The translations under genes and the position numbers were made by a program. A stretch of DNA of 64,000 nt from Thermoplasmatota archaeon (GTDB lineage Archaea; Thermoplasmatota; Penumbrarchaeia; Penumbrarchaeales; Penumbrarchaeaceae), in assembly GCA_025457865.1 (NCBI GenBank), contig JALOTP010000016.1:516-64515 (forward strand), given 5' to 3'. Shown one piece after another: positions 3,864 to 58,247 of this stretch. Numbering within the stretch: the first letter of the stretch is position 1; every line of letters begins with the position of its first letter. Below the pieces are notes generated by a model that was not told the DNA's origin, made no database searches, and saw only the letters and a program-made list of their open reading frames with translations.

Positions 3864-3885
3864 AGTATCACGTTTATTAGCTCAA

Positions 3886-4377
3886 CTAAATGCAATTTAT
3901 AGTGAACGTTCCAGAGGTCCAGGCTGTAGCAATATTTGTATTTACAATAGTATATACATAGAAATCAACATAAATTGTTGAAGATTTTGAAACACCATTG
4001 TATGTATGTGTGGGTGTATCGAGATCAGATCCTGGATTAGTAATATTTTGCCAAGCGGAGGCATAAGCCTTTACTTGAGTAGGGCTATTAACAACATAAT
4101 ACGTCAGGTTCCAATATTGACACCCGCTGGTCGCTCCTGGCCAATTGAGGCCAAATAAAATATCGACAATCACATGAACATTATCTTGACCGTTTTGTGC
4201 TACAATTATTGCTTGGGTCAAAGTCGGAGGATTGATCGTGTATGTTATCGTCGCTGGCCCAGCATTGGTATTTATTGAATGTGTTGCCGGAACTTCAGCC
4301 GCATCCACATAAATAGGTATGAGAACCGTAATGCATAACAAAGGAAACACCATTCCTATCACAACTTTTCCCATCAT
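3886..4377 (-). CDS. Small secreted protein of unknown function (163 aa), paralog of 8653..9165
   Basis: The N-terminus is hydrophobic (MMGKVVIGMVFPLLCITVLIPIYVDA). It aligns by eye with the 170-aa ORF: QAIIVAQNGQDNVHVIVDILFGLNWPGA..YWNLTYY versus QSVIVTAGDNVRVCVDLTLSMNFTGA..FWNITFY. Both end in (T/V)INCI. It sits 22 nt upstream of the SBBP gene start on the same strand. Confidence 0.6.
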   Translation of the reverse strand: MMGKVVIGMVFPLLCITVLIPIYVDAAEVPATHSINTNAGPATITYTINPPTLTQAIIVAQNGQDNVHVIVDILFGLNWPGATSGCQYWNLTYYVVNSPTQVKAYASAWQNITNPGSDLDTPTHTYNGVSKSSTIYVDFYVYTIVNTNIATAWTSGTFTINCI

Positions 4378-4510: not shown

Positions 4511-7500
4511 TTATTCGTCGGTTCTGTTTGATCCATTATCGCGAACATTAGCTTTAGTTCTTATCCGTATGACAAGGAAAAGGACCAATGAGCAGGTCAT
4601 GATGATGAGGAGCAGAAGGAAGACAAGCAAAAACCCGTATCTCGGTCCTGTCGCTCCATTATCATCATCGTGAGGAATATCCTTCGGTAGGACCGTTACG
4701 GTGACATTGTCCGAACCTGAGTTCCCTGAACCGTCCTTGACCGTGAGCGTGACAGTATAATTCCCCTGTTCCGTGAAATTGAACGAAACAACGGACCCGT
4801 AGAGGACGACATCTCTGTCTCCGAGATGAATGGTCCATATCCCGTTGCTTATCCCGACGTTGTCAGTTGAGTTCGTGCCGTTAAGTAATACAACTGTCCC
4901 TTCAAGGACCGTCTGGTCGGATCCGGCATCGGCAGTGGGCGGTGTTATGTCCATAACCGTAATTGTAATGTTATCCGTTCCCCTGCTCCCTGCAGCATCC
5001 GTCACGGTCAGTACTATCTCGAATATACCCGGGTCCTTGAAGATGTATGTTGGGACCGGACCGTACAATACTCTATCTATTCCATCAACGAAATCCCATC
5101 TGAATTCAATTATTCCGACGTTGTCCTCACTTACGGAAGCATTGAATGTGACCTCGGTATCCTCCGGAGCGACCAGGTCCTTTCCTGCTCTAGCAATGGG
5201 CGGTGTTATGTCATTTATATTTATTTTCATGGTCTTTATGTCCCAGTTACCTGCAAGGTCGGTCACCTTGAGTGAGACATCGTACCCTCCGGGGTTGAAG
5301 AATGTATGATCTGCTGTCTGTCCACTTCGGGTCGCCGAATATGATGCCCCATCTATGAACCATGTCCAATCCACGAGCCCTATGTTGTCGTATGAAAGGG
5401 AACCGTCCAATGTCACGACCTTATCCTCATTGTAATCACTTTTCATAACGAACTCCGCTTTGGGGGGGATGGTATCCACGACCGTTACGGAACCATAAAG
5501 GCTCGCCAGATTGCCTTGCATGTCGGATGCGTTGAAGCAGTATTGTATCGGTTCCGTGGAGTTGGTGGGAACGCTAAGTTGATGTTCGAACATATTTGTA
5601 CCTGACATGCTGACATTCGTCCGTTCACCTGCCGTCCAGTATTCGACATATACTGAAGAAACTCCTATGTTGTCCTGGACCTCGACAGTAAACGTCAGTT
5701 CCTCCCCTGTCCCTATCTGGTTGAGTGTCAGGTCCCGGATGAAGACCGGTGGGAACAGGTCGAACACGTCCACTCGTTTCTCTGTCGTGGAATTCCAGTT
5801 GGAAGAGTTATCAACCACCGAGAACCTGTAGAAGAGTTCGGAATAGTTCCGCGGTATCTCGATATCCAAAAAGAAATTTTCCTTGGAAAGGGACATGGTT
5901 GAATTGTTTTTATCCTCTGATCCAAACCTATACTCGACCTGAACGGAAGATATGGCAATGTTATCGGATACGGAAACGATGAACTTGAACGGTTCTCCGG
6001 TGGATGCATTGGAAGGTGTCAGGTCGGACAGGAACTCCGGTCCGTCGTTGTCCTTGACCAAAACGGTCCTCTCTGTTGTATTTGCCCAATTCCCTACAAG
6101 GTCCCTTGCACGGAATATATAATGGAGCGATTCGGTGGAATGTGTTGATATGTTGATCTCGTATCGATAAGGTCCTGTACCGCTCATGGAACGATTGATG
6201 ATGGTCCCCTCCCCGAATCGGAATTGGACAAAAACACCCGAAATCCCAATATCGTCGGTTACTTCTGTTTTGAACTCGAACCTGTCCCCTGTCGTGGCAT
6301 TTTCATCGCTTAAGTCCTGTCCGAAGACAGGTTTGATGTTGTCAACAGTCGTGTTCAATTTTGTAATGATGACATCAGCCTCTCCATAGTGTAGGGTTTG
6401 ATAAGCACCTTCGGTCGTCGGGTATTGAACAACTTCATCATAGAACGAGAAACCGGTGATACATACTACATCATCATCTAATGCTATCCCTTTACCATCA
6501 TCACGTTTTCCCCCTCCAAGATAGGTTGAATATTCAAGGAAAGAACCCGATGAATTGAGCTTTGTCACGACAACGTCAATTCTACCATTAAATGTACTAT
6601 CCTCCGCTCCTTTCGTTATAGGATAATCATTGCTCTCGGTTATTCCTGTAATAAATGCATCTCCATTGTTGTTTACAATTATGTCCTCTCCCCCATCTTG
6701 ATTACTCCCGCCTATGAATGTAGAGAAGATCAGATCCGAACCGCTTGAATTGAGCTTAGTCACAAAGATGTCCAATCCTCCATTATAGGTCGTATCGTAT
6801 GCTCTTTCGGTCGTAGGGAAATCGCTATATGCCTCCGGAGAGTAGTCTCCGGTTTGACCTGTGATATATACCTTATTTTCCCGGTCCAATGATATTCCAT
6901 ATCCAAAATCATCATCATTGCCCCCGATGAAGGTCGAAAAGATCAAGAACGAACCATTCACATCGAACTTGGTAACAAATACATCCATATTTTCATTGAC
7001 ATTTAATATTGAATCGTAAGCATCTACGGTCGTAGGATAATCAAAGCTGCTGGTAAAACCTGTGATGCAAATGTTGTCGTGAGAATCCAAAGCTATCGCC
7101 ATAGCATAATCATTGGATGACCCGCCAACATAGGTTGAAAAAATTAAATTGGAACCGGTGCTATCGAGCTTCGTTACAAACGCGTCCATCCAGCGGCTAT
7201 CATCATTATATTTATCATCATAGGCATTTACTACTGGATAGTTGGATGAATTCGTAAAACCCGTTATGATGATATTTCTAAAAGGATCTATTGTTATCCC
7301 CCCAGATGAATCCCTGCATTTCCCCCCGATAAAAGTTGAAAATATCAGGGATGACCCTGTTGGGTCCAGCTTTGTAACGAACGCATCGTAATCGCCATTG
7401 TGCAGAGTATCATATGCTCCTGCGGTGACGGGATAGTCATTGCTTTGTGTGTCACCGGTTACGTATGTACAGCCGTCTGGATAGATCGAGATAGAACTGC

Positions 7501-8662
7501 CAAAATCGTATCTACTTCCTCCCAGGAACGTAGAATAGACCAGGGAGGACCCCGCAGCATCCATTTTTGTGACCATCACATCGTAACCACCATTGCTTAT
7601 ATGGTCGAACGCTCCTGCGGTAGTTGGATAATCGATCTGGCTATCCTCACTATAGCCTGTTATGTACATATTTTCATCTTTATCTAAAACGATTGAATAT
7701 CCACAATCTTCACCATTTCCACCTATGAATGTCGAATAAATGAAAGGGTCTATTACCACTTTCCTTGAGACATCATAAGAGCCAAGGTCGAATCCGAACA
7801 CATCTCTCTCAATTAATATAAAATCGCTCTGGATACTTCCATTTGGTTCGTCTGAGTAGAATGATATCAATTTTGAGTCACGTACCTCACCTAAAGCTGT
7901 CTCAATTAGTAGATCACCATTCTTGTCAATACCGATATTCAATTGGCCTTCGACCCGTATCCTGATTTCTGAGGGGTCCGCTCCGGGTTTTAATATCAGG
8001 TCGTACTTGATGGTGCCTTCATTTATGCGATATATCAGGTCGATCCCGTCCCATAGATCGAAATAAACAATTTCAAAATAGTTGGGAACGTTCGTATACC
8101 ATTTCTCCGGATCGTTACCCTTGAAGTAATTCGTATTCCAGGAGCATCTTTCCTTACCGACCGGGGCCACTGGATTGCATCCGGTAAAATAATATTTCAG
8201 GACAACTCCCCGTTCATGAAAGAACATAGGGATATTCTCTCTTGGACCAAAGGCCTCATTGGAAGTTGTCTCATCCGGGTCGTACGGTTCTTTAATAGAA
8301 TATACGTAATATACGCAATTTGAAGAAAAGTAAATATTTCCCTCAACCGAATAATAGAGGATGTCCTCATCGAGCTGATCGATGTTTTGAATAAAGTAAC
8401 TAGATCTTAAAGAGGCAGCTTTCTCTAGAAAATGACCATTCAATGAACGATCGATAACCTTGTTTTCAACATTTCTAACACCTGCAGTATATTGGGGATG
8501 GAAAAATATCATAGACAAGAGAATGATCGAACACCCTGCCATCAGGTAACAGGACCTTCTTCGGACAATCATCATATCGCTAATCCAATTAGAGAGTGCG
8601 GTCTCCAGACATGTCCATTCACCTTTTCGTTCTATTGTGTCAAGGTTGTTTTTCAAATACAA
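4511..8662 (-). CDS. Large cell-surface protein: N-terminal domain typical of SBBP proteins, about 8 SBBP beta-propeller repeats, three Ig-like repeats, three PKD domains and a C-terminal TM anchor
   Basis: It has a recurrent SBBP-type repeat (YSTF(I/L)GGxxxDxGxxIxxDxxxNxYITGxTxSxDYPTTxGAYDxxxNGxxDAFVTKLxxxGSxLxFSTFIGG). It has PKD-like segments (LDGSLSYDNIGLVDWTWF...YDVSLKVTDLAGNW; FNASVSEDNVGIIEFRWDF...IVLTVTDAAG). A hydrophobic stretch GFLLVFLLLLIIMTCSLVLFLVIRIR lies near the C-terminus. The true start may be the MM at about 8575 (MMIVRRRSCYLMAGCSIILLSMIFF). Confidence 0.9.
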   Translation of the reverse strand: MYLKNNLDTIERKGEWTCLETALSNWISDMMIVRRRSCYLMAGCSIILLSMIFFHPQYTAGVRNVENKVIDRSLNGHFLEKAASLRSSYFIQNIDQLDEDILYYSVEGNIYFSSNCVYYVYSIKEPYDPDETTSNEAFGPRENIPMFFHERGVVLKYYFTGCNPVAPVGKERCSWNTNYFKGNDPEKWYTNVPNYFEIVYFDLWDGIDLIYRINEGTIKYDLILKPGADPSEIRIRVEGQLNIGIDKNGDLLIETALGEVRDSKLISFYSDEPNGSIQSDFILIERDVFGFDLGSYDVSRKVVIDPFIYSTFIGGNGEDCGYSIVLDKDENMYITGYSEDSQIDYPTTAGAFDHISNGGYDVMVTKMDAAGSSLVYSTFLGGSRYDFGSSISIYPDGCTYVTGDTQSNDYPVTAGAYDTLHNGDYDAFVTKLDPTGSSLIFSTFIGGKCRDSSGGITIDPFRNIIITGFTNSSNYPVVNAYDDKYNDDSRWMDAFVTKLDSTGSNLIFSTYVGGSSNDYAMAIALDSHDNICITGFTSSFDYPTTVDAYDSILNVNENMDVFVTKFDVNGSFLIFSTFIGGNDDDFGYGISLDRENKVYITGQTGDYSPEAYSDFPTTERAYDTTYNGGLDIFVTKLNSSGSDLIFSTFIGGSNQDGGEDIIVNNNGDAFITGITESNDYPITKGAEDSTFNGRIDVVVTKLNSSGSFLEYSTYLGGGKRDDGKGIALDDDVVCITGFSFYDEVVQYPTTEGAYQTLHYGEADVIITKLNTTVDNIKPVFGQDLSDENATTGDRFEFKTEVTDDIGISGVFVQFRFGEGTIINRSMSGTGPYRYEINISTHSTESLHYIFRARDLVGNWANTTERTVLVKDNDGPEFLSDLTPSNASTGEPFKFIVSVSDNIAISSVQVEYRFGSEDKNNSTMSLSKENFFLDIEIPRNYSELFYRFSVVDNSSNWNSTTEKRVDVFDLFPPVFIRDLTLNQIGTGEELTFTVEVQDNIGVSSVYVEYWTAGERTNVSMSGTNMFEHQLSVPTNSTEPIQYCFNASDMQGNLASLYGSVTVVDTIPPKAEFVMKSDYNEDKVVTLDGSLSYDNIGLVDWTWFIDGASYSATRSGQTADHTFFNPGGYDVSLKVTDLAGNWDIKTMKININDITPPIARAGKDLVAPEDTEVTFNASVSEDNVGIIEFRWDFVDGIDRVLYGPVPTYIFKDPGIFEIVLTVTDAAGSRGTDNITITVMDITPPTADAGSDQTVLEGTVVLLNGTNSTDNVGISNGIWTIHLGDRDVVLYGSVVSFNFTEQGNYTVTLTVKDGSGNSGSDNVTVTVLPKDIPHDDDNGATGPRYGFLLVFLLLLIIMTCSLVLFLVIRIRTKANVRDNGSNRTDE

Positions 8663-9165
8663 TTTATTACAAACGTTGTAAATGACGAGCCATTAGCAAG
8701 TTCTACGATTGGCGACCCCCCATAGCAGTGAACATCACTAGAAACATCCACTGTTATCGTGTCACCTTTTTGGACTGAGGTATAGAGGTAATTTTTCATA
8801 TCGTGGTCGTTGCCAAGAGTGCCGTTAACCCTCAATGTTCCCGAAGGGGTATAGACTGCAATATTATTGGTATTTATTTGATAAAAAGTTATGTTCCAAA
8901 ATCCATAAGTGACCATAGCTCCCGTAAAGTTCATTGAAAGCGTTAGATCGACACATACACGTACATTATCGCCTGCGGTGACAATTACTGATTGAGACGG
9001 GGGTGATGAGGGGCAGGTATCGAATGTGACACCGGAATTCTGGACATGTGAATTGACAGCGATATTAGATGGAACCAGAGCAGCACTTACATGTGTCATC
9101 ATCATCATAGTGATGGCTGACAGGATTATTACCATTCCATTTTGCACTGCTATCTTACTTATCAT
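8653..9165 (-). CDS. Small secreted protein of unknown function (170 aa), paralog of 3886..4377
   Basis: It has a hydrophobic N-terminus (GMVIILSAITMMMMTHVSA) and the same C-terminal FVINCI ending. It overlaps the longest ORF of the downstream SBBP gene by 10 nt. Confidence 0.6.
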   Translation of the reverse strand: MISKIAVQNGMVIILSAITMMMMTHVSAALVPSNIAVNSHVQNSGVTFDTCPSSPPSQSVIVTAGDNVRVCVDLTLSMNFTGAMVTYGFWNITFYQINTNNIAVYTPSGTLRVNGTLGNDHDMKNYLYTSVQKGDTITVDVSSDVHCYGGSPIVELANGSSFTTFVINCI

Positions 9166-50600: not shown

Positions 50601-51745
50601 ACTTGCCTGAAGATCGAGATTCTGGATTTTTCGAAGATTATGATTATTACAGCGACTACGATCACGATGGTTTAACAACTTTAACCGAAAAGTTCTGGCT
50701 GAACAATACTATATTGTTTAACAATCGACCATTGAACTGCGGGACGTTAGACTCGTCTTTATGGGATAAGGACGGTGATAATGTGAGCGACGGTTGGGAG
50801 ATAAAATACGGATTCGATCCGTGCGATAACTCAAGCCCGAACAAGAACGATGACGGGGACCAGGACGGGATCAGTGATTACAATGAATATTGTCTTGAAG
50901 ATACGCCTGGATTTTTCGTTGATAGAAATGTGACCATAAAGTACCATAACATGTCAAAATGGGGAGCTCAACCGGACAGGCAGGATATCTTTGTTGAAGT
51001 AGATTGGATGAAAAAACATATTAAAACATATATTATGATGCCTCAAGGAAATGGTGAATATAAGAGAATAGATGTTGAATATGATATTGAATATAAAATG
51101 TCGGAAGAAGCAAAGGATAAGGTTATACTTGCCTTTTTTAAGGCATGTAAGTATGGGAATCATATAACATTGCACATCGACGACGGATGCATGGGTGGGG
51201 GGGAAACAATCCCATATCAAGAAATAAATTATATAGATATAATACCTGGAGTAAATAATGATATATATGATATAAAGTGGGGTAATGATTGGAATATTAC
51301 ATATAAAGAAATTGGAGAAATTGAAGATATTTGCACGTTAAATATGGGTGATAATAATAATTTTAATTATGAACGTTTTAGAGTATTTTATTATTGTGTA
51401 TTTGATAAATGTTTAGAAAGCAATGATAATACTATTCAAAATATCATTTTTAAAACGCATCTTGGACAAAGTGATGGATATGATACATTTTGTATATCGA
51501 AAGGTCATCCAATACTAAATGATGGATATTATGATGGATTAAATGTAGCAGGTGTTTTTATGCATGAATTAGGTCATTGTTTAAGTTTGAATAGAGATAG
51601 TGAAGGTGTTTATGGGTTTGACGTCTTAGGTCCAAAAACTTGTATGAATTATAGAGATATTTATGACACCATTGATTATTCAGAAAATGAATGGAGTATG
51701 CTTGATTTATTATCGAAAGCTAATCCATTAATAAGGAGATATTGA
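38645..51745 (+). CDS. Giant secreted or anchored multidomain protein (4366 aa): parallel beta-helix repeats, a discoidin (F5/8 type C)-like domain, CBM-like modules, a beta-propeller-like region, long runs of TSP3 calcium-binding repeats and a C-terminal HExxH metzincin-like module
   Basis: The N-terminal hydrophobic segment is ISLMIMLLIISLFAAVSVTG. PbH1-like repeats include NVIVKANQTGIGIEVEDGG... and NNGIGVITNNSLPVILNNVISDSG. A discoidin-like segment lies at about 40170-40520 (YDGVWDTAWMSG...VREFEIYG). CBM-like modules include YIEAEHLSG...YKLNVRARS...VDRITLTK. Dozens of DxDxDGxxDxxE repeats are present. DIFVEVDWM is at 50984-51010 and HELGHCLSLNRD at 51563-51598. Confidence 0.9.
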   Translation: MSGRGVNRKLMDISLMIMLLIISLFAAVSVTGENGSLDPIRAYTGVHIDLGLYDDTTSDFEFMSRSNARTIRLSSKSSKEESVSFEIGKVSLEMKRVQVSDENGKGTDRSTLFGNEKTKDSRINDPVGSNKLVLKNAEHLNVEYSTTITGLKETVIIEGPPMNLTSDLIIKTKIGLSGEINPEKASKYEWTEGTGPDLVLKDGMGTGLRLPNPILYSSPSIVMTDSGPVKIKETVHRQELKYRYYYGKDHLDYEVVVPFELFDQDLVYPLYIDPSIVSFEGYAEYEGYPNGSVAFRDGTDTAWYHNVDRTVYLESDVTVGASETLIFRNVIVKANQTGIGIEVEDGGSFGVYDETVMTVTDVCDGYSILMKDGSSCQIMNSTVEKAKTGTGVDIGSSDVTVYNSTFRFNGDHGLLVNQSVPIIFDSMFYEEDIGIRILPFSNAILSGNRINNTGIGIEHGSSNIFDDLSTSDNIEKMIGTEHVNGHVEYKIVPENYALTCPSVTVDSTYSSFVKGNMYDGVWDTAWMSGTTEPHYAIFDFSPDQINLTSFKIYHYSGAYRLYDYQVQTWSGSGWVTQFNVDNNGQTLTTHTLGSIVSSQKVRLYITDSTPSSDARARVREFEIYGDDDGEDTHYMLTRPIPVYGPTIFGSLVLDKVEPGESKVYVSILDGETNTTIPGFDELDGTNIDLRWINTTAHPTIKVKAQFVRDGDDEPYIDSWKLYFSTYRSESCDLDSYSDLSDHSDIDLFGGKAHLSGEDLILDEQWGEGWDMYWTVQELYDGGDCYPVIDNWEGSGNDLYIEGKCLTPSPGHDGEVIVSRYFGEVHPNCTLDIHFTGQIDSSIYNYADMMITLYDQSNSTKRQIRWTTRDYSYNGGLSGDTYYIVAQEEDPTTPYANEVTIDSTIEDLFVGYFGEEFNFTTYRYLKIEVLSLENYNQRQNPKVYIDHVRLSNLTMFGSGTTNTFNRDLTETWAYLVFNGDRNDTGDIRLSLLDPSTGSVISGFDGLTSYTTDISSLNDQGILSFQVQFELFYDISAPDLDWITVFTNPLFVGNEIVNNGIGVITNNSLPVILNNVISDSGTIGIHVWEPRTDAIDDSEMSFILSGNVIEDNPLGMFVENTSVNISLTDFIDNDVTIRVHGSSFKMNGGTVQGNGNRMYINNSLAEFTESWFNGSVFDFESRYSRVVFNGVIRSNNDPEQVELVHSTMVFIDVEDYMDIDRTLDGYSVLYCNWSYSFDITPRYDETPAGASALIYNKTGDLVSTVDITDDCQLTGTISERIITQSYESYETPHNFKIGSKNDIYLYMVSPQYHSIYYCYDSDADSIADIAEKDEGKYLFESEDLVCEDKVYELGAVERSTDENIVPIDIHIQEDDLEELEFSFAVRARSINVSADRSFTIDMDDGTIPIDETFEVTPDWRWYQTSWSPTYLAHITGEIRDDDSMSVEIDRFVLLKKNDDTDENPPVLGSPLISDMDDDGLFDGYERTQNGVYIEAEHLSGVTVVSNTTAINSKFGQSTIFSFNVNIMNAGEYKLNVRARSETTETMWINDGNNGSEELTDQFRWFEIGIGYGSTGEKNIKISSNSTVIDVDRITLTKVSDVEITKLSGNVVNVPQWGLATRAEVYYTSESEVRSFDNPDRGTISSLDVDGNLSVYASPNGSDDDITGYNLTTGREYDIEVGSDVHSFKPSISRGEVVYHDDEGTYGGNIWYCDLRSGPDALDPMMISTEGGISYKGYDAKISDGTVVWHSDTGDELYVRFMDSMSFITIEDAGYDIGNFSIYGRTVAWISVDENEYKVRMADVGILADVQERDSEYTGLTPHIQTIAETTNTIFRSVDIYGTSIVYMESNVGLSKLMLYDRMSNTSNCIYAYTSNITYTKPVQIYGSYVCWQETTANYYIKVMEIGSSVQTWTQPSTIATCSLYSGQVYFTYSSSNQIKGYVQDYSFIVDEAWSNTHLPFFTSENVAISVHSTDDLSSELNEALLASQANIESISTEERRTDIVIGLDHDYGTSLTMTGVRISMDSLTDPFSSDVDMDGLTDGEELLGWYNQTIIEVEDTISFKEWIEPDCGKEHSVFTGLAAMFYRYSPMFYVDGVDLMTGDYRYNKDEGDNEFWTNTSSGMAFELPDLGSGKYKVMTVQNERIKSAYSDLDDAEIMNKRPAMEVRGSESDTFGTGNSDLYEELYKLNDTELEYIGYVLDEILVFDYVGSSGENMSVLSETRDYQVLWCYIGRLVDSPHEYYDEESENDLMFLGFQMDYEAEINLGGPSSYRLEIRFDLDLLPDNLDPLLKGTLGEASLVPDGFPVERFNFMRMVNLDSIIIAGHGLNPISEDTDLDDLDDGVEVYLDTFPLTEDGDKDGISDYDEVITYETRPNKRDTDFDGIRDPVELGILSGSLIRTNSVGSWFERKVRNGDYFDLANVSNVDADEGATDTEPTVIDTDRDGLPDGWVDGWGYYGGYFSGLGTSGSMYSTSNWRGGLGYDCLVQVYEGEDIDLDGEVDDELTDWDFDGLTFEFAGSGTAECDPNTPDSDEDHIPDGYEILYGIQEPFLGSSGEFILSPTEGDSDHDLDPLGRDVLSGITPEEPSHFQTVTSTNTRYAQEIVPLTPPDDIKKLAWVGVLVDSEDEVQCIEIWSGNNSGGGEPRDKLKTIYGYEAKEEGEDLTNYIFKVPQGIFFNGLRVGDVFYLVVPYTGTNIDWTNRSDGAGKTCYYSGSGWTELTSIDLCYTLYCHDLVGEGLTNLEEYIIGTDPKDRNSDVGYLGYNDDDLSDFEETVGYFGNGGSGLGEDEVLARTNVENGTLSFDRLLSGSYLSSHKIYYNENPASFDVNEYDYYDNGTEFNCSSLEIVNVFKLRDGSDVIKVTIDEDDYLIVWDTLCLDEEERTVEGTNTIIHCEYIRFISDGSVSATYSIDLSFIGQDIFFSEPCSYDSDWDGILDGEEIGWNDNSDGDYTLRELSQLGTDLVYNVRDRDSDNDGIDDGDEIDWNLTNDGQGLDETDMRENMVDPDSDGDGIWDGWEREYYSDQDSDGLENGIDPDSDNDGLCDGWGDGYIWDSYSGSFVQIYSSGKVYNPSGQVDNMFDLWEGEDKDRDGILDGNETDHLRPDTDCDGLWDGWDVVIDDVVHRGELYETGNTAFDSLMQISGFDYNRVYKPNTPSWEQSGSTNSSDPDTDTDGISDGEEVNGWDLRLEIRYVDPSTNSITRTVMDSIVSDPTLADRDSDGLSDWEEYSNGSLPYETDSDKDGLGDYKECSAWFTSPSDFDTDKDNLPDGWIDGWRRVNATVWKSDRTKNSQREVWEGEDIDGDGVLDALESNPRYRDTDNDHIIDGHEYFHMNITSVMDPWSQVPGTARYYWSYDADGTSNARDNDSDGDGLLDGLEDWNLDGKLEASLSGSTYPNYVMAKESNPYDTDSDDDGLDDGEDVIVGGILYNRADPDGDGVISSMDRDSDGDGELDDEDPNPLYYGDQDNDGDGLSYQMEQVLGLSDNDADCDNDGIRDGDEVKNGTDPSDEDTDDDGLTDGYELVTSRTDPLKYDTDNDGISDKVEYINMSSGLDPFDPDVDDDGLSDGNPFEGVRDYSLNVKQKAQWTNSDSNFETILGEPFTYNFNDEDSDGDGLKDGYEIGIMDKDGNLIGDMNKSVIDGDTDNDRVKDSVETWLNLDPLNYDTDGDYVPDGWIDGWTRNKDGTWHLDKSLRDGVKDLHEGESICYDGTVTFMVQREINANSGTKTDTEGDTLPDWLDRWMGANPDSTDTDGDEVTDNLDLEPLINSNIHFSFFLKSFFVMDDTSLDFPNDKPDPLFTCDLQSRGTFTDSWKDSDHGGAEIAERKVEKGYCNDPCDQYGSDYLYKISRGFVVQNLPSDHYQLLFAIRMYDKDSCSADDQVDISPCSSYTLEVFYDVVTGMWAVWDDMSVIRETSYNTYLNDPDNLKEGVYLYKNQNDSYTVIRETEKGTPVAGIGDGIGYVTGFEPGSKDLKEAGGIQFEIAPMYLPEDRDSGFFEDYDYYSDYDHDGLTTLTEKFWLNNTILFNNRPLNCGTLDSSLWDKDGDNVSDGWEIKYGFDPCDNSSPNKNDDGDQDGISDYNEYCLEDTPGFFVDRNVTIKYHNMSKWGAQPDRQDIFVEVDWMKKHIKTYIMMPQGNGEYKRIDVEYDIEYKMSEEAKDKVILAFFKACKYGNHITLHIDDGCMGGGETIPYQEINYIDIIPGVNNDIYDIKWGNDWNITYKEIGEIEDICTLNMGDNNNFNYERFRVFYYCVFDKCLESNDNTIQNIIFKTHLGQSDGYDTFCISKGHPILNDGYYDGLNVAGVFMHELGHCLSLNRDSEGVYGFDVLGPKTCMNYRDIYDTIDYSENEWSMLDLLSKANPLIRRY

Positions 51746-51746
51746 A

Positions 51747-52313
51747 ATGAAGATATTCATTAAAATATATCCAGTATTAGTTACAATTATTTGTTCTTTG
51801 ACAATATTATCTGGATGTATTATAAATAATGATGAAGACTATTTTAAATCAATCAGTGTTATATATATGACCAATGAAATAACATTAAATATTAGTGATT
51901 TAAATTATCCAAATAATGTAAAACTTTTTACTATAAATTCAAAATTTAATAATGGAGAATATAATATGAAACTTGATTTTTATAATAATAATAATTCACT
52001 CAATATTGTAAGAGTAAGCGAAGTTATGAATATTCGCTATATAAAACCATTTAAGCAATACTATTTCAAATTTGAAATTGATAATTACTATTATGATATG
52101 GAAAAATATGATATTATAGGACAAAATAATTCATTTGATGGTTATTTAACTTTTGATAAAGAAAATAATATTCATTGGAATATTGAGAATAAATATACTG
52201 GATATTATAATTTTTCATTAAAAGATAACAATATACTAATAATAAAATTATTTCCAAACTTTTATAATTATAATTTGTTTTTTTCATTCTATTTATCTAG
52301 GACTTTTATATGA
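51747..52313 (+). CDS. Small lipoprotein-like protein (188 aa), translationally coupled to the giant gene; candidate cognate partner (inhibitor or immunity protein)
   Basis: The ATG lies 1 nt after the giant gene's TGA, with AAGGAG at 51733-51738. The signal plus lipobox-like motif is MKIFIKIYPVLVTIICSLTILSGC. It is extremely AT-rich and N/Y/K-rich. I recognised no family. Confidence 0.65.
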   Translation: MKIFIKIYPVLVTIICSLTILSGCIINNDEDYFKSISVIYMTNEITLNISDLNYPNNVKLFTINSKFNNGEYNMKLDFYNNNNSLNIVRVSEVMNIRYIKPFKQYYFKFEIDNYYYDMEKYDIIGQNNSFDGYLTFDKENNIHWNIENKYTGYYNFSLKDNNILIIKLFPNFYNYNLFFSFYLSRTFI

Positions 52314-52381
52314 TATGATTAAAAACTCTTGACTTGAAATAGTGACAAATATCTCCCCCACTTCACAACTAGATTTAGTGT

Positions 52382-52539
52382 GAGTTGATCCATTGGGATT
52401 TCGACGGATTGATGTTCGAGTATTCAGCCTGACCTCGTCACATAAAGTATAGAACCCGAACTCGCCCGATTCGGATTAAGATGACATGCCCGACGGACAC
52501 GATATACTGAATGTTATCTGTGCCTTTATTGGATAGCGG
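52382..52539 (+). pseudogene. Decayed leader of cassette B, homologous to giant-gene nt ~46148-46310 but carrying stops and a frame change
   Basis: It translates as ELIHWDFDGLMFEYSA*, whereas A reads ELTDWDFDGLTFEFAGSG. After a frame change it reads NPNSPDSD*DDMPDGHDILNVICAFIG*RLSS, whereas A reads DPNTPDSDEDHIPDGYEILYGIQEPFLG. Confidence 0.7.
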
Positions 52540-55500
52540 TTGTCATCGAATTCTGGACCCCACCATAGGGATCTCGATAACGATCTAGATCCGTATGGTC
52601 GAGACATCGTGATAGGAATATTACCGGACGAGAACAATTATTTCGAGACCGTTACCAGCACGAATGTTCGGTTTGCCCAGGAGATCATACCACCTAACCA
52701 TGAGAAAGACCTGAGGAAGGTAGCTTGGATAGGAGTATTTTCAGACAGCGAGGATGAGATAAGATGCATAGAGATCTGGAGCGGGTATGGGGGTTTGAGT
52801 GGTGAGCTCCGGGACAAGTTGAAGACGATCTACAGTTATGAGTTGAAGGAGGAAGGAGAGGAACTGACCAATTACATCTTCAAGGTGCCCCAGGGAATAT
52901 TCTACAACGGTTTATCGGAGAACGATGTGTTCTATCTTGTCGTGCCTTATACCGGTAAGAACGTTGATTGGTGCAGCATCAATATAGATTCTGGAAGAAC
53001 GCTTTACTATTCCGGTACAACCTGGAGCATTGTATCATCCAACATAGACCTATGCTATGTTCTCTACAGTCATCATCTAGAGGGAGATAGCTTGACAAAT
53101 CTTGAGGAGTACATTGTCTGTACTGATCCGAAGGACAGGAACAGCGATGTGGGTTATCTAGGTTACAATGACGATGTTCTGACCGATGGTCAGGAGGTAA
53201 GGTCATATTTTGGCGGTGGTGGAGAAAGCACCGGAGAGGGAGAGGTTCTGGCCAGAATTACCGTGGAGGAAGGGGCGATAAACATCGATAGATTATTGAG
53301 CGGAGCCTATCTCAGTAGTCACAAGATATTCTACAATGAGGACCCGTTGAGCGATGATTACGTGGAATATAGTTATATTGACAACGGAACCGAGTATGAG
53401 TACACGACATGGGAATGCGTGAATGTGTTCAAGCTCAGGGACGGGAGCGAAGTCACACAGGTAACGGAAGGGAATGACGAATATCTGGTGGTATGGGACA
53501 CACCGTATCTTGATCAGGAGGAAGTAACGGTAGAGGACCAAACAACGACGGTACACTGTGAGTTCGTCCGGTTCATAAGGGTTCAGGAGATAAGTGCGAC
53601 CTATACGATAGACCTCTCGTTCAGGTGCCAGGATATCTATTTCTCAGAACCTTGTTCGTATGATTCGGACTGGGACGGGATACTCGACGGAGCAGAGATA
53701 GCTTGGAATGGGAACTCGGACGGGAGTTATACTGGAAGGGAACTGACCGAGTTGGGAACCGACTCAGTGTACAATGTCCGGGACCGTGATTCGGACAACG
53801 ACGAAATAGATGACGGGGACGAGATAGAGTGGAACGAGACCAATTATGGCCAAGGCCTAGACGAGCTTGACAGCAGGGCGAATATGATAGACCCCGACAG
53901 TGACGGAGACAGTGTCTGGGACGGGTGGGAGAGGGAACCGTTATCCGATTACGATCATGATGGTTTCGCGAACATGGAAGACCCTGATTCCGATAGTGAT
54001 GGTCTTTGCGATGGTTGGGTGAACGATTACGTATGGGACCCTCAGGCCGAGTCAGGATTGGGTAAATTTGTACATGTGACCGAGTCCACAACGTTCAGTT
54101 TCAGTACATCCAATTCAAGCTTTGACTGGTGGGAAGGCGAGGATGCGGATCGGGGCGGAATGAGGGAATTGACAGAGACCGACCCGTTGGATGTTGATAC
54201 GGACAATGACCAATTCTGGGACGGTTTCGATGTCAAGGACATAAATGGAGATTACACGAGAGGCGAGATGTATATTCGTGGAGGGTACATATCCGGGTAT
54301 GATTATCAAAGGACGTACTTTACAGAACAGTCTTCAAGTACAGACCCTCTCGATCCTGATTCGGATGGAGATGGGATAGAGGACGGGATGGAGTATCATG
54401 CATGGGGAAATTACAAATATATGGAGATAAAAGTACCTACCGGTCAGGGAATCGTCATGGCCGAGTATTACGATGTCCGGTCCGACCCTTCAATAAACGA
54501 CACTGATAACGACGGGTTAAAAGACGATGAGGAGTACGAAGCAGGAACGTTGCCCAATGCAACAGACAGCGACAGAGACGGTATCCTAGACGATAAGGAA
54601 GTAATAACCGGGACAAATCCTAAGGATTGCGATACGGACGGTGACGGAATACCTGATGGTTTTGTTGACGGTTGGTGGTTCGATACGTATGAGAAGAAAT
54701 GGTTCCTGAACGTATCGAGGGTAGATACAGAAGAGAACTACTGGGAAGGGGAGGATCGAAACTGCAACGGTATCTCTCAGAGCTCTCTGAATGAAACGGA
54801 TCCGACCAGTTCCGATTCGGATGACGATGGGATCGAAGATCCGTTTGAATATTTCTTCAACCTCCAATACGAATGGACGGATCCCGAAACGGATTACGAT
54901 GTGGACGGAGTCGGTATGATCAATCCTCTTGACGAAGATTCCGATGGCGATGGATTATTGGACGGAGAGGAGGACTACGACCATGATGGGGAACTAGATG
55001 CGGTTGTAGGTACAAGTTCAGACAATCCCTATTTTTCATCTGCACAGGAATGCAATCCATATTGTTCAGATTCTGATGGGGACGGTGTAGAAGATGGTGA
55101 TGACAGCCCGTATGAGACCATGGATTTGATTTGGCGTGGAGACAGTGACCAGGATGGGTTGATAAATGCAATGGATAGCAATTCCGATGGTGATGACTGG
55201 TCCGATGATGTCGATCAAAGACCGTTAGTGTATGGAGCTGAAGGAGACACCGATGGGGATCAGGATCCCGACAATGACGATGACGGTATTCTGGATTGTA
55301 ATGAGGACACTAATGGGAACGGATATTACGATGAGGGTGATGATACATCTAACTTGAACAGTAACGATACAGATTTAGATGGATTATTGGACATGGTAGA
55401 GTTCGTGTTAGGAACGAATTTGACGAATGTTGACACAGACGGGGACGGATTGACGGATTCAGAGGAGAATACGATTGGGACGGACCCGAAGGTACCTGAT

Positions 55501-57486
55501 AGTGACCATGATGGAGTTAGGGACGGGACCGAAGTGATAGATTGGAAGACTAACCCGTTGAAGAAAGACAGTGATGGAGACGGTCTAGAGGACAATGACA
55601 CATATGAGCGGAACATGGACACCGATGGAGATGGGATCAAAAATGCATTGGACATAGATTCGGACAACGACGGATTAACGGATGGTAACGAAACGAAATT
55701 GCATCAGACGGACCCAGTTAACAACGATACAGATTCGGACGGATTACTGGATGGACAGGAGTTATTATTCTACTCGAACCCAAGAATGAACGATACAGAT
55801 TATGATTTGCTTCTCGACAACGATGAATATCTGAGCGGAACAGATCCGTCCAAGAACGATACGGACGGTGATAAGACCTTAGATAGATGGGATGTTGAAC
55901 CGACAGTGAGCGATCTTCGTTTAACTTTAAACGTATATGAAATGAATGCGTTGGAAGAAGTGGATGTATGGCCATGGCAAGAGCCAGAATTCAGGTTAAC
56001 AGTCAAGTTCGAGCAATTGGTCCCTTGGACCTGGGAAAAGCTGAATAATGATGGTGACAGTACTTGGTATGTGGATAATTACAATATACAGGAAGATAAA
56101 GCATTCATAACGGACAAAATAAGTCCCAAAGCGTTATGGATAAAGGTATCTATCGTATTGGATGAGATAGATAGTTTGAAGAATGACCGGTGCGACATCA
56201 GTCCACAAACGGACCGGACATCTGTTACATTGTATTATGATCTGAGGACATCGCTTTGGAACGACCTTGGAGCGTTCAAGCATGAAGAAGATTGTCAAGT
56301 ACCTCCTGGAACAGAGGAATTTGTTCAGTATGAAGATTTAGAGGAATATAAGTTCCAAGAGGGTTCAGCCAGATATGAGGGGGAGTATGGGATATTCGAG
56401 ATGGATGACGATATAGGGTACATTACGGGTAAGTATGATAGGGCGAATAAGAACAATGATGATTGCGATATATCGTTCGGGATACATCTGAACGATAGAG
56501 ATAGGGACAATATCACGGATTATGCAGAAAGGATGTATTGGGGAACGGATAGAAGTGATTGGGATAGCGATGGTGATAAAATGTCCGACGGTTGGGAGAT
56601 AGTGCATGTTCGAAGTGCTGTAAATAATTCAAATGGTGGAAAGGATAGAACAACCACTAACGATCCTGATTCTGATGGAATTTCGGATCTGAACGAGTAT
56701 GAGCTGGAAAGATTTGGGGCACATCCGAGAAGGAAAGATATCTTTGTGGAGGTTGATTGGATGGTAGAAGAATACTGGGTAAGCAGCGTTAATGAAGGTA
56801 ATCCAGGTGGTGATAATTCCTATTTGTATACAAAACCTTATAAAATGAAATCTCGAGCACAATTCCTTGTGATCAAACCGTTTGCGAAGCATAACATTGG
56901 ATTGCACATAGATGACGGATGCATGGGTGGGGGAAAACCTGTTGATTATGAAAAATATTTAGTTAGCGGCCAAGTTGATCCTAAACATCCTGATTACCTA
57001 GATAGATTGGATATTAAATGGGGTATAGGTTGGGATAGTGGTGCAGATGGAAAACCAGGCACAGGTGACTCCGGTGAAAGTAATGGAATTCTTGATGATT
57101 CTGAAAAACCGCATTTAGCTATGAATAATTTTGATATAAATCGTTGGCATGTTTTTCATTATGTAGTTTTTTGTGATAAAATATGGTTTGATTGGGGTTC
57201 AGGTTTTAAGGATGATTGGCGGGGATTAGGAGAAACCCCTGGTGATGAGTTTATGATAAGCACAAATCAGGAAAAATACACTTTTATGCATGAACTTGGA
57301 CATAATCTGAATTTGCATCATCCGATTAATAAAAATGGTTCGTACTACTATTCTGATTATAATACTAAGAGTGAAGCAAAGAAGACGGTAATGTATGCTC
57401 CCTCATCCAGCGCAACCGGTGGTTACACCTATGATAAATTATGGAAATATATTGACCTTACGAAATTTACTACTAATCTGGACTAA
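52540..57486 (+). CDS. 5'-truncated paralog (cassette B, 1648 aa) of the C-terminal third of the giant protein, with an intact HExxHxxxxxH module. Probably an orphan or silent cassette rather than an independent gene.
   Basis: It is colinear with residues ~2555-4366 of the giant protein: DLDP.GRD, IEIWSG, TNLEEYI, FSEPCSYDSDWDGILDG, the TSP3 run, DIFVEVDWM at 56737-56763 and HELGHNLNLHH at 57289-57321. The only start is a TTG. It has no signal peptide, and the upstream homology is interrupted by stops. Confidence 0.75.
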   Translation: MSSNSGPHHRDLDNDLDPYGRDIVIGILPDENNYFETVTSTNVRFAQEIIPPNHEKDLRKVAWIGVFSDSEDEIRCIEIWSGYGGLSGELRDKLKTIYSYELKEEGEELTNYIFKVPQGIFYNGLSENDVFYLVVPYTGKNVDWCSINIDSGRTLYYSGTTWSIVSSNIDLCYVLYSHHLEGDSLTNLEEYIVCTDPKDRNSDVGYLGYNDDVLTDGQEVRSYFGGGGESTGEGEVLARITVEEGAINIDRLLSGAYLSSHKIFYNEDPLSDDYVEYSYIDNGTEYEYTTWECVNVFKLRDGSEVTQVTEGNDEYLVVWDTPYLDQEEVTVEDQTTTVHCEFVRFIRVQEISATYTIDLSFRCQDIYFSEPCSYDSDWDGILDGAEIAWNGNSDGSYTGRELTELGTDSVYNVRDRDSDNDEIDDGDEIEWNETNYGQGLDELDSRANMIDPDSDGDSVWDGWEREPLSDYDHDGFANMEDPDSDSDGLCDGWVNDYVWDPQAESGLGKFVHVTESTTFSFSTSNSSFDWWEGEDADRGGMRELTETDPLDVDTDNDQFWDGFDVKDINGDYTRGEMYIRGGYISGYDYQRTYFTEQSSSTDPLDPDSDGDGIEDGMEYHAWGNYKYMEIKVPTGQGIVMAEYYDVRSDPSINDTDNDGLKDDEEYEAGTLPNATDSDRDGILDDKEVITGTNPKDCDTDGDGIPDGFVDGWWFDTYEKKWFLNVSRVDTEENYWEGEDRNCNGISQSSLNETDPTSSDSDDDGIEDPFEYFFNLQYEWTDPETDYDVDGVGMINPLDEDSDGDGLLDGEEDYDHDGELDAVVGTSSDNPYFSSAQECNPYCSDSDGDGVEDGDDSPYETMDLIWRGDSDQDGLINAMDSNSDGDDWSDDVDQRPLVYGAEGDTDGDQDPDNDDDGILDCNEDTNGNGYYDEGDDTSNLNSNDTDLDGLLDMVEFVLGTNLTNVDTDGDGLTDSEENTIGTDPKVPDSDHDGVRDGTEVIDWKTNPLKKDSDGDGLEDNDTYERNMDTDGDGIKNALDIDSDNDGLTDGNETKLHQTDPVNNDTDSDGLLDGQELLFYSNPRMNDTDYDLLLDNDEYLSGTDPSKNDTDGDKTLDRWDVEPTVSDLRLTLNVYEMNALEEVDVWPWQEPEFRLTVKFEQLVPWTWEKLNNDGDSTWYVDNYNIQEDKAFITDKISPKALWIKVSIVLDEIDSLKNDRCDISPQTDRTSVTLYYDLRTSLWNDLGAFKHEEDCQVPPGTEEFVQYEDLEEYKFQEGSARYEGEYGIFEMDDDIGYITGKYDRANKNNDDCDISFGIHLNDRDRDNITDYAERMYWGTDRSDWDSDGDKMSDGWEIVHVRSAVNNSNGGKDRTTTNDPDSDGISDLNEYELERFGAHPRRKDIFVEVDWMVEEYWVSSVNEGNPGGDNSYLYTKPYKMKSRAQFLVIKPFAKHNIGLHIDDGCMGGGKPVDYEKYLVSGQVDPKHPDYLDRLDIKWGIGWDSGADGKPGTGDSGESNGILDDSEKPHLAMNNFDINRWHVFHYVVFCDKIWFDWGSGFKDDWRGLGETPGDEFMISTNQEKYTFMHELGHNLNLHHPINKNGSYYYSDYNTKSEAKKTVMYAPSSSATGGYTYDKLWKYIDLTKFTTNLD

Positions 57487-57495
57487 GGTGATTCT

Positions 57496-57879
57496 ATGAA
57501 AAAACAATTGGTTATTTTTTTCGCAATTATTTGTATAGTTACATTCATAATAGGTTGTCTAAATGAAAAAGATAACAATACAAATCCCAATGAAGAAACT
57601 ACTGAAACCTATTTCAATTTTTATTCATCTTCATCAACAATTGATGATAATGTTTCTATTGTAATAATAACGAAAAACATCACTGTTTTTAATGATACAT
57701 TAAAACTTAATAAAGGAGAGAAGATTTATCAGGAAATTGCTAGTGGGGAATTATATATTATAAAAATATTTTGGAAAGGAAACCTCACAGAAAAAGAATT
57801 TTTACCAACAGGTTATAATTCAATATTTTTAATAATTAACAATTATGAAATAACTTTTTATGAAATAAATATTGATTAA
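57496..57879 (+). CDS. Small lipoprotein-like protein (127 aa) coupled to cassette B; unrelated in sequence to 51747..52313
   Basis: The ATG lies 9 nt after the TAA of cassette B, with AAGGTGA just upstream. The signal plus lipobox-like motif is MKKQLVIFFAIICIVTFIIGC. One hand-counted line gave ~23% GC. Confidence 0.65.
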   Translation: MKKQLVIFFAIICIVTFIIGCLNEKDNNTNPNEETTETYFNFYSSSSTIDDNVSIVIITKNITVFNDTLKLNKGEKIYQEIASGELYIIKIFWKGNLTEKEFLPTGYNSIFLIINNYEITFYEINID

Positions 57880-57975
57880 CCCACTGTGAAATCCGGGAGC
57901 AGTATGAATAGTTATGTCATTCTCCAAGGCTTAACAGAATGTACTGTGTACAAAAAAATGGGAGTGTTCATTGTG

Positions 57976-58203
57976 TTCACTTTCGAGGGGTTCGGTGAGT
58001 GCGATCCCAATTCCCCCGATTCGGATGATATCCCGGACGGGTATGAGATACTGTATGGTATCAAGGAACCGTTCCTTGATAGCGATGGTAACCTAATTAT
58101 AGACCCGACCACAGAAGATCCCGATAACGATCTTGATCCGAATGGTCGAGACATCGTGACAGGGATATTACCGGACGAGAACAATTATTTCGAGACCGTG
58201 ACC
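57976..58203 (+). pseudogene. Cassette C: a 76-codon stub of the same junction region (inside track ORF 57886..58224)
   Basis: It reads FTFEGFGECDPNSPDSDDIPDGYEILYGIKEPFLDSDGNLIIDPTTEDPDNDLDPNGRDIVTGILPDENNYFETVT. The last ~60 nt are nearly identical to cassette B at 52597-52660. Homology ends at 58203, and a stop follows at 58222-58224. Confidence 0.7.
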
Positions 58204-58247
58204 TGTTTCATTATGCATTTTTGAACCGGCGTCCTCAATAGTCCTCA

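Follow-up and report, generated by a model that had tools for sequence, protein, structure and literature searches.

A candidate archaeal effector–immunity locus with metzincin-like tips and exported partner proteins in a genome of the Thermoplasmatota

The window analysed here is a 64,000-nucleotide (nt) stretch of a metagenome-assembled genome (MAG) of a Thermoplasmatota archaeon (GenBank assembly GCA_025457865.1, contig JALOTP010000016.1, positions 516–64,515). It contains an island at 38.6–58.2 kilobases (kb) with five features, all on the plus strand: a giant surface-protein gene (gene A), a small partner gene (A′), an open reading frame (ORF) related to gene A (ORF B), a second small partner gene (B′) and a short ORF. 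The locus is read here, with somewhat better than even confidence, as an archaeal polymorphic effector–immunity system in which a protease tip is paired with a cognate extracellular inhibitor. Six lines of evidence favour this: a stalk protein that is exported and encoded at full length, shortened copies downstream of it, arrays of cassettes elsewhere, seams delimited by motifs, tips of foreign composition and exported partners specific to the tip subtype. A toxin–immunity type of interpretation had been put forward in a first-pass annotation of the sequence and is supported by the match of the tip to the metzincin fold, by the conservation of cognate partners and by the confinement of AT-richness to tip and partner; proteolysis, toxicity and inhibition by the partner are inferred.

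According to the proposed mechanism, the product of gene A would be a Sec-exported giant surface filament with a signal peptide, a β-helix and a calcium-binding TSP3 stalk, and its last ~250 residues would form an exchangeable tip, a metzincin-like zinc endopeptidase as judged from a structural model. Homologous recombination would exchange one tip for another, acting in the stalk and at two motifs within the enzyme itself (DIFVEVDWM and LHIDDGCMGGG), and alternative tips would be stored in promoter-less or truncated form (ORF B, the short ORF and two cassettes elsewhere in the same genome). Each tip would be inherited with a translationally coupled, secreted, lipid- or membrane-anchored β-sandwich partner, which would bind and block its cognate protease only, on the outer face of the producer membrane. 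Since the partners are predicted to be exported and membrane-anchored, the site of action would be the cell surface. Kin would be protected, and neighbours lacking that partner would have their surface proteins cleaved. The sequences and models themselves show the architecture, homology and fold class, the export signals, the joint inheritance of cognate tips and partners, the cassette arrays, the breakpoints and the foreign composition. The catalytic activity of the tip, its target, its inhibition by the partner and its role in competition are all proposed in this sense.

The C-terminal module of gene A

Gene A (38,645–51,745, plus strand) encodes a protein of 4366 amino acids (aa) and is the sole full-length gene of the locus. 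The N-terminus of the product is a hydrophobic signal or anchor segment, MSGRGVNRKLMDISLMIMLLIISLFAAVSVTG, judged by eye and by hydrophobicity and not by SignalP; it is followed by a β-helix, a galactose-binding-like domain, a calcium-binding TSP3-type stalk with 27 DxDxD[GN]xxD motifs and the C-terminal protease-like tip. A large part of the gene (46,147–50,955, plus strand) recurs downstream, as seen from direct repeats and tblastn, and constitutes a homology arm. Junction 1, KWGAQPDRQDIFVEVDWM (50,956–51,010, plus strand), encodes the first strand of the module and marks both a recombination breakpoint and the start of a fall in guanine–cytosine (GC) content; it is 75% identical at the nucleotide level to 56,709–56,763 of ORF B (repeat D10). 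The motif DIFVEVDWM lies at 50,984–51,010 in A and 56,737–56,763 in B. The variable tip of A (51,011–51,745, plus strand, 28% GC) contains junction 2, LHIDDGCMGGG (51,170–51,202; 56,902–56,934 in B), the HELGH sequence (51,563–51,577; 57,289–57,303 in B) and a Met-turn-like motif, CMNY at 51,641–51,652, which reads TVMY at 57,385–57,396 in B. The complete zinc motif is HELGHCLSLNRD in A, from 51,563, and HELGHNLNLHH in B, from 57,289.

The shared C-terminal module reported by the first-pass annotation is evident in the last ~280 residues of A and B, which are 34% identical (E 1e-30) and contain all of the motifs listed for it. A search with a profile of A and B gave about 200 relatives, nearly all from Thermoplasmatota MAGs, where the module is again C-terminal; all sequences of the data set are from MAGs or metagenome contigs. 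Six residues are invariant in an alignment of 37 modules (F163, H222, E223, G225, H226 and W265, the middle four being the H, E, G and H of HELGH), and DWM, LHIDDGxMGGG and FMHELGH are near-invariant.

An AlphaFold2 model of the module has a predicted local distance difference test score (pLDDT) of 81 and a predicted template modelling score (pTM) of 0.83. The metallopeptidase fold on which the first-pass proposal depended was looked for in a Foldseek search with this model, and the top five Protein Data Bank (PDB) matches, archaemetzincin (three chains), PAPP-A and ulilysin, are all metzincins (probability 0.77–0.99, E 9e-4 to 4e-2, identity 7–12%, TM-scores 0.32–0.58). A profile search of PDB sequences matched adamalysins, serralysins and matrix metalloproteinases at the zinc helix and the Met-turn, with E ~1e-4. 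As with archaemetzincin, ulilysin/pappalysin and adamalysin domains, the module carries HExxH on an active-site helix and, downstream, a Met-turn-like motif; unlike these domains, it has the DIFVEVDWM and HIDDGxMGGG signatures, which are specific to its own family, and a variable third ligand. Of the reprolysin-like Pfam families (PF13688, PF13582), Reprolysin_5 scored 25.7 bits for B against a cutoff of 27, and A had no Pfam hit; NCBIfam gave weak serralysin-type matches, none at threshold, and Tox-MPTase1-5, HopH1 and PVC-metallopeptidase matched neither module in a Pfam scan at E ≤ 1. Because no family threshold is reached and the third ligand varies, the label metzincin-like is used, not membership of a named family: on sequence and predicted structure, the module is a putative divergent, unnamed metzincin-like family.

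The spacing HExxHxx(G/N)xxH is present in B, which has H at position 11 and N in place of G, and in many relatives, many of them reading HELGHNLGLxH. Among 102 C-terminal modules with HExxH, H or D occupies position 11 in 24 and position 10 or 12 in 26, and 52 have neither residue at positions 10–12. The Met of (C/V)M(N/Y)(Y/A) is conserved, and Mx[YFW] occurs within 70 residues of HExxH in 84 of the 102, as judged by sequence position only. HExxH itself is kept in 102 of 103 retrieved modules; this count is weak and not independent evidence, since most loci were retrieved through an MHELGH pattern and the counts for the active site are biased accordingly.

In bacterial relatives (Streptomyces, Nonomuraea, Actinoplanes, Chloroflexota, Clostridia and others) the module is internal, with 200–1800 residues after it, and a lipoprotein partner is missing; the fold family is thus wider than the archaeal cassette system. 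The proteins encoded at the bacterial loci (L028, L031, L045, L056, L062 and others) are secreted and multidomain, and carry VWA, FHA, DUF11 or Ig domains.

The exported partners and their inheritance with the tips

A′ (51,747–52,313, plus strand) encodes 188 aa at 18% GC and B′ (57,496–57,879, plus strand) 127 aa at 22% GC; they are 100% identical to MUC62_04285 and MUC62_04295, respectively, of a ‘Candidatus Thermoplasmatota archaeon’ MAG at NCBI. The tight coupling of each module to a downstream small ORF, as first described, is borne out: the TGA stop codon of A is followed by one base and then the ATG of A′, with the Shine–Dalgarno sequence AGGAG upstream, and the TAA stop of B by 9 nt containing a Shine–Dalgarno sequence, GGTGA, and then the ATG of B′. 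Both products begin with a signal peptide ending in a lipobox-like Cys (MKIF..LTILSGC in A′, MKKQ..FIIGC in B′), also as had been noted. LSGC and IIGC fit the pattern [LVI][ASTVI][GAS]C, which makes the partners candidate lipoproteins; signal peptides and lipoboxes were called with a simple heuristic of hydrophobicity and regular expressions. The probability of a 188-codon ORF arising by chance at 18% GC is ~3e-9, and that of a 127-codon ORF at 22% GC ~4e-6, as calculated from base composition; together with the homologues found elsewhere, these values indicate that A′ and B′ are real genes.

Beyond the signal peptide the two partners have no similarity to one another (BLASTP E 0.011). The initial description of a pairing that occurs twice with unrelated partners therefore holds as regards the partners, but ORF B is incomplete as a gene. 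Neither A′ nor B′ has a Pfam or NCBIfam match above threshold. A model of A′ from six sequences (pLDDT 83) has an N-terminal helix (signal or anchor), a disordered linker after the Cys and an all-β domain of ~155 residues. A Foldseek search with it matched nothing in the PDB at E ≤ 0.001, and the top entries, at E ≥ 0.03, are generic sandwiches resembling C2, FnIII and Ig domains. Immunity proteins are typically diverse, and the predicted fold argues neither for nor against an inhibitor role.

At first A′ and B′ appeared to be orphan genes, as a word-indexed search gave self-matches only; this was a limit of sensitivity, and relatives were found later. A gene of 18% GC, 1 nt downstream of the A-type module that is closest to that of gene A (locus L003, 51% identity), encodes a 177-aa protein 35% identical to A′ (E 5e-21). 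An exhaustive phmmer search gave five further relatives of A′, two of which (P0126 and P0127) are encoded directly after A-type tips on independent contigs. Gene context led to two relatives of B′, one of 126 aa (E 1e-16) and one of 123 aa (E 3e-14), directly after B-type tips in L091 and L090. The expectation that partners are conserved beside such modules in other genomes is thus confirmed for the A′ family, which follows A-type tips in L003, L085–87 and L088–89, and for the B′ family in L090 and L091. Throughout the relatives found, A-type tips carry predicted A′-type partners and B-type tips B′-type ones. Members of the A′ family are also encoded without a module directly upstream on two very short contigs, L083 (993 nt, from the same metagenome as L001) and L084 (682 nt); P0124 (L083, 277–825), 44% identical to A′, may be an orphan immunity-type gene.

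The module hidden Markov model was run over 142 fetched loci and the window. A co-directional ORF of 80 aa or more lies at −45 to +80 nt in 54 of the 98 C-terminal modules that could be evaluated; an N-terminal hydrophobic segment (signal or transmembrane) is found in 46 of these 54 (85%), and a lipobox-like Cys, scored with a looser pattern than the one given above, in 32 (59%). Control ORFs of 100–350 aa from the same loci, partners included, have a hydrophobic segment in 24% and a lipobox-like Cys in 7% of cases, and internal, mostly bacterial, modules have no lipobox-like partner (0). The partners fall into unrelated families: a ~200-aa family designated ‘LPIP’ (11 members), A′, B′, a ~220-aa Ig-like family and many singletons. 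In a profile comparison, LPIP showed no relation to A′ or B′ beyond the signal peptide. Among 39 pairs there are 16 partner families or singletons; in 24 of 35 cases a locus shares its partner family with the locus whose tip is nearest to its own, versus 12% expected by chance, and tips are more similar within a partner family than between families (Mann–Whitney p 7e-9), in a set that includes some near-duplicate contigs and carries no correction for phylogeny.

A separate, non-polymorphic pair occurs in L016, L020–L022, L029, L033, L077 and L121. It consists of a ~500-aa signal-peptide protein with the module at its end and a lipoprotein of ~315 aa that contains bacterial TSP3 repeats, whose gene follows at −14 to +8 nt. 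This pair has host-like GC and is 43–78% identical between genomes; it may represent the ancestral physiological form.

Truncated copies, cassette arrays and base composition

ORF B (52,540–57,486, plus strand; 1648 aa), counted as a second full gene in the first-pass annotation, turns out to be a 5′-truncated paralogue of the last ~1830 residues of A, an orphan copy. Residues 2535–4317 of A align colinearly with 52,486–57,321 at 41% identity (tblastn), and repeats D2, D6, D7 and D11, at an offset of ~6236–6239 nt, tie the 46.1–47.7 kb region of A to the start of B. The start of B is a mechanically called TTG; B has no signal peptide, whereas A has one. Upstream of B, homology to A goes on in other frames, with a frameshift and two in-frame stops, and the decayed 5′ junction of this second unit (52,314–52,539, plus strand) is homologous to A residues ~2501–2560. 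The first unit of what is a three-unit tandem array starts near residue 2501 of A. Identity between A and B declines from 60–85% near the unit start to 15–30%, with a brief rise at the junction; B still holds an intact ORF of 4.9 kb (1648 codons). The third unit is a stub (57,886–58,224, plus strand), a short ORF 55% identical to A residues 2502–2593 and 93% identical at the nucleotide level to 52,570–52,656 (repeat D9). It stops at the island edge, where host-like GC resumes. From the sequence, the locus appears to consist of one expressed gene, a truncated cassette of tip and partner, and a stub, which is the classic layout of a polymorphic toxin locus (Zhang et al. 2012, PMC3482391).

The base composition of the locus has three tiers. 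Flanking host DNA (10–38 kb and 58.25–64 kb) has 58% GC (57.8%), and the island as a whole and its gene bodies 46–48%; tips have 28–37% and partners 18–22%. GC content in the first unit falls from 47.7% in the body to 28.4% in the tip after DWM and 18.2% in A′, and in the second from 46.2% to 36.7% in the tip and 22.1% in B′. The collapse over module and partner that had been estimated from hand counts is therefore real. In gene A it starts in the 60-nt bin at 51,000, which coincides with the DIFVEVDWM (DWM) junction. It had been asked whether AT-richness might extend over the whole island; windowed analysis restricts low GC to tip and partner, so it is not island-wide.

Further hallmarks of polymorphic toxins, beyond those of the first-pass annotation, are the truncated orphan copies in the window, tandem arrays elsewhere and sharp breakpoints at conserved motifs. 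L002 contains six consecutive module–partner pairs, whose modules are near-identical up to HIDRGEMGGG and divergent beyond it; L091 contains five modules, some degraded, and two partners back to back; L003 has the same layout as the window and a saw-tooth GC profile. Arrays are also present in L004 and L001, and assemblies made independently from different samples show this layout again. L001 is assigned to the MAG of the window by a shared locus-tag prefix, MUC62 (P0008 = MUC62_00485), and carries two cassettes of 26–33% GC between housekeeping genes of 58% GC. Its homology to gene A (86% at the nucleotide level over 319 nt) ends at 51,010, the last base of the DWM codons, and a second stretch (84% over 111 nt) ends at 51,201, inside the last Gly codon of MGGG. 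The tip of A is therefore a mosaic with seams at the two most conserved motifs of the family. B′ matches the second partner of L001 in the signal peptide only.

P0008 (L001, 10,001–11,185), an orphan module and the first cassette of that locus, has an N-terminal part that is joined to it in frame and resembles VapB/CopG-type antitoxins (Pfam PF02697); the fusion runs on into a linker 86% identical at the nucleotide level to that of gene A. This fusion may be accidental, giving the cassette a start codon.

Outside the window, a GC-rich element of ~150 nt precedes many truncated modules that start at ‘..KLHIDDGCMGGG’ (L034, 346–495; L053, 108–257; L085, 1–116 and 1721–1809). It is 95–99% identical across MAGs and metagenomes, although different tips and partners come after it, and in the 1.8-kb contig L085 it flanks the cassette on both sides. 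The element folds strongly (RNA minimum free energy −59.2 kcal/mol, z −3.7) and matches no Rfam family; possible roles are a recombination site at cassette boundaries, a mobile-element end or a non-coding RNA. In L034 (1–341) a group II intron is represented by its 3′ end (Rfam RF00029, domains V–VI at 266–341, 54.5 bits, E 1.7e-8), preceded by what by eye appears to be the C-terminus of an intron maturase ORF. The intron ends exactly where the homology to the L053 and L085 elements begins, which places it at or in the element.

Nothing unusual adjoins the island: the neighbouring genes encode an acyltransferase, a TPR protein and a PQQ/PKD surface protein. No tRNA or Rfam family was found in the window. 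A phage-borne locus or a known defence system was ruled out, as a search of viral contigs gave no relatives and neither PADLOC nor PHROGs gave a match. Elsewhere in the window, two genes at 3886–4377 and 8653–9165 (both minus strand) encode signal-peptide proteins of 163 and 170 aa, paralogous by eye, which end in FTINCI and FVINCI and belong to no Pfam family. They flank a gene for a 1383-aa surface protein (4511–8662, minus strand), in which repeats, Ig-like domains and a C-terminal transmembrane segment were recognised by eye only; local GC is lower, 40–48%. The left edge of the window (2001–4000) has 33% GC and no convincing long ORF, and may be another foreign insertion.

Alternative explanations, known systems and significance

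Several points weigh against an effector–immunity system. MAGs and metagenome contigs are the sole source of the data. A single enzyme family supplies every tip, in contrast to classical polymorphic toxins, where the toxin domains exchanged have unrelated folds. The TM-scores to solved metzincins are low, and the third zinc ligand is non-canonical in A (HELGHCLSLNRD, with D one position late) and in about half of the family. Among PDB entries the model of A′ has no structural counterpart in known metalloprotease inhibitors or immunity proteins. A closely following partner is missing from about half of the C-terminal modules, including most of the stand-alone ones of ~480 aa, and the conserved non-polymorphic pair suggests that the ancestral pair had an ordinary function in physiology. 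A and B are 41% identical overall and reach 70–90% nucleotide identity over short segments, which would make recombination between them inefficient today.

The main rival is that the module is a feeding or housekeeping surface protease served by a dedicated helper lipoprotein (an anchor, a chaperone or a trans-acting pro-peptide latency factor), and that the diversity reflects substrate adaptation and the co-evolution of enzyme and helper. Sediment Thermoplasmata are protein degraders; the non-polymorphic pair, with its host-like GC, is conserved in many Thermoplasmatales, many enzymes stand alone, and the bacterial relatives are ordinary multidomain secreted proteins without partners. The module family also has no recognisable N-terminal pro-peptide, so a latency factor encoded in trans would be plausible. 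What a helper leaves unexplained, however, are the tandem arrays of truncated, start-less cassettes with common 5′ homology, the breakpoints exactly at conserved motifs, the extreme foreign composition of tip and partner, and partners that lie beside degraded modules or back to back, as in L091; nor would a helper be expected in as many unrelated families as the 39 pairs contain. It is considered unlikely, and the chaperone or anchor alternative named at the outset by the first-pass annotation is weakened.

Surface variation against viruses or predators would make the exposed filament tip the variable part, with silent cassettes as in pilS or vls, and the enzyme and its partner secondary. Silent 5′-truncated copies with homology arms downstream of one expressed gene fit such a scheme, and a precedent is offered by the VARTIG modules of Thermococcales, hypervariable archaeal loci of polymorphic-toxin-like organisation that begin with a large surface protein and continue with variable membrane-protein genes tracking the surface-protein subtype (PMC8416519). 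VARTIG, however, contains Ig domains and no identified toxin or enzyme, whereas the variable part here is a recognisable enzyme; the catalytic HExxH is invariant in the 37-sequence alignment, and evasion needs no separately exported partner that co-varies with each tip type. This explanation is improbable. Decaying mobile DNA (AT-rich pseudogenes without current function) or an artefact of chimeric MAG contigs is very improbable: B indeed has no proper start and a decayed 5′ junction, a stub follows it, the cassettes have a foreign base composition and arrays are frequent at contig ends, but the reading frames are unbroken across the GC shift, B is open for 1648 codons and A′ and B′ are open at 18–22% GC, the layout is found again in assemblies made independently from different samples, and the partners have conserved homologues and, for the modelled fold, a confident prediction.

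The effector–immunity reading draws on bacterial polymorphic toxins (Rhs, CdiA/CdiI, MafB; PMC3482391), in which a large exported stalk protein has a C-terminal tip that varies past a conserved junction, a small cognate gene lies directly downstream and arrays of 5′-truncated orphan tip–partner cassettes follow. The locus described here differs in its archaeal host, in its TSP3 stalk in place of RHS/YD or haemagglutinin repeats, in its use of one enzyme family for all tips with junctions inside the enzyme fold, and in that no dedicated secretion system is visible among the domains of gene A or the neighbouring genes. In CdiA the junction motif is VENN and in Rhs PxxxxDPxGL; Rhs of E. coli has a GC-rich core and AT-rich tips, and the tips here are likewise far more AT-rich than the body. 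The partners here are also unlike bacterial ones in being exported and lipobox-bearing, which implies action outside the cytoplasm; Imm65 is the sole lipoprotein immunity family listed by Zhang et al. 2012 (PMC3482391).

Polymorphic toxin systems, familiar from bacteria, were held to be rare in archaea in 2012 (PMC3482391). Contact-dependent conflict systems have since been predicted in many archaea (Makarova et al. 2019, mBio 10:e00715-19, as cited in PMC8416519); as far as that citing paper relates, they share cassette arrays and adjacent immunity genes with the present locus, but their commonest toxins are DNase and RNase domains, as opposed to the metzincin-like tip found here. None had been experimentally characterised as of 2021 (PMC8416519). 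The pairing of enzyme and partner also resembles serralysin–inhibitor operons (Pseudomonas AprA–AprI, Erwinia PrtC–Inh), where a metzincin gene lies beside a gene for a small exported β-protein; serralysins are among the sequence matches of the module. AprI and Inh specifically inhibit the neighbouring metzincin and protect the producer. Those operons, in contrast, are non-polymorphic, lack cassette arrays and use type I secretion, and the partners here have no Pfam match, A′ having no fold match to those inhibitors. No description of a system of metzincin tips and lipoprotein partners in Thermoplasmatota was found in the literature searched, the 2019 archaeal survey being represented there by the paper that cites it. 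The locus is apparently an undescribed archaeal form of the polymorphic toxin–immunity layout, and it stands out in drawing its polymorphic tips from one enzyme family, in having seams that fall within the fold, and in its exported lipobox partners and TSP3 stalk.

A bolder and distinctly tentative extension is that a lineage-wide, extracytoplasmic protease weapon for kin discrimination exists in Thermoplasmatota, in which the specificity half of the metzincin tip of a filament would be swapped at motifs within the fold, each tip would be held in check at the membrane of the producer by its own lipoprotein inhibitor, and the structured ~150-nt element (abutted by a group II intron in one locus) would delimit at least one class of cassette, suggesting integron-like mobilisation in archaea.

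The pair itself is simple, a putative zinc protease domain of ~250 aa and an exported partner of 100–200 aa, and natural cognate and non-cognate combinations are catalogued here (A/A′, B/B′ and the LPIP family). Breakpoints inside a catalytic domain are unusual for polymorphic toxins and bear on the co-evolution of enzyme specificity and inhibitor escape. If the effector–immunity reading is true, wall-less or S-layer archaea would be shown to use proteases in conflicts at the cell surface, the metzincins would gain another family, several protease-inhibitor folds would be new, and part of the ‘giant gene plus AT-rich island’ pattern in Thermoplasmatota MAGs would become easier to explain.

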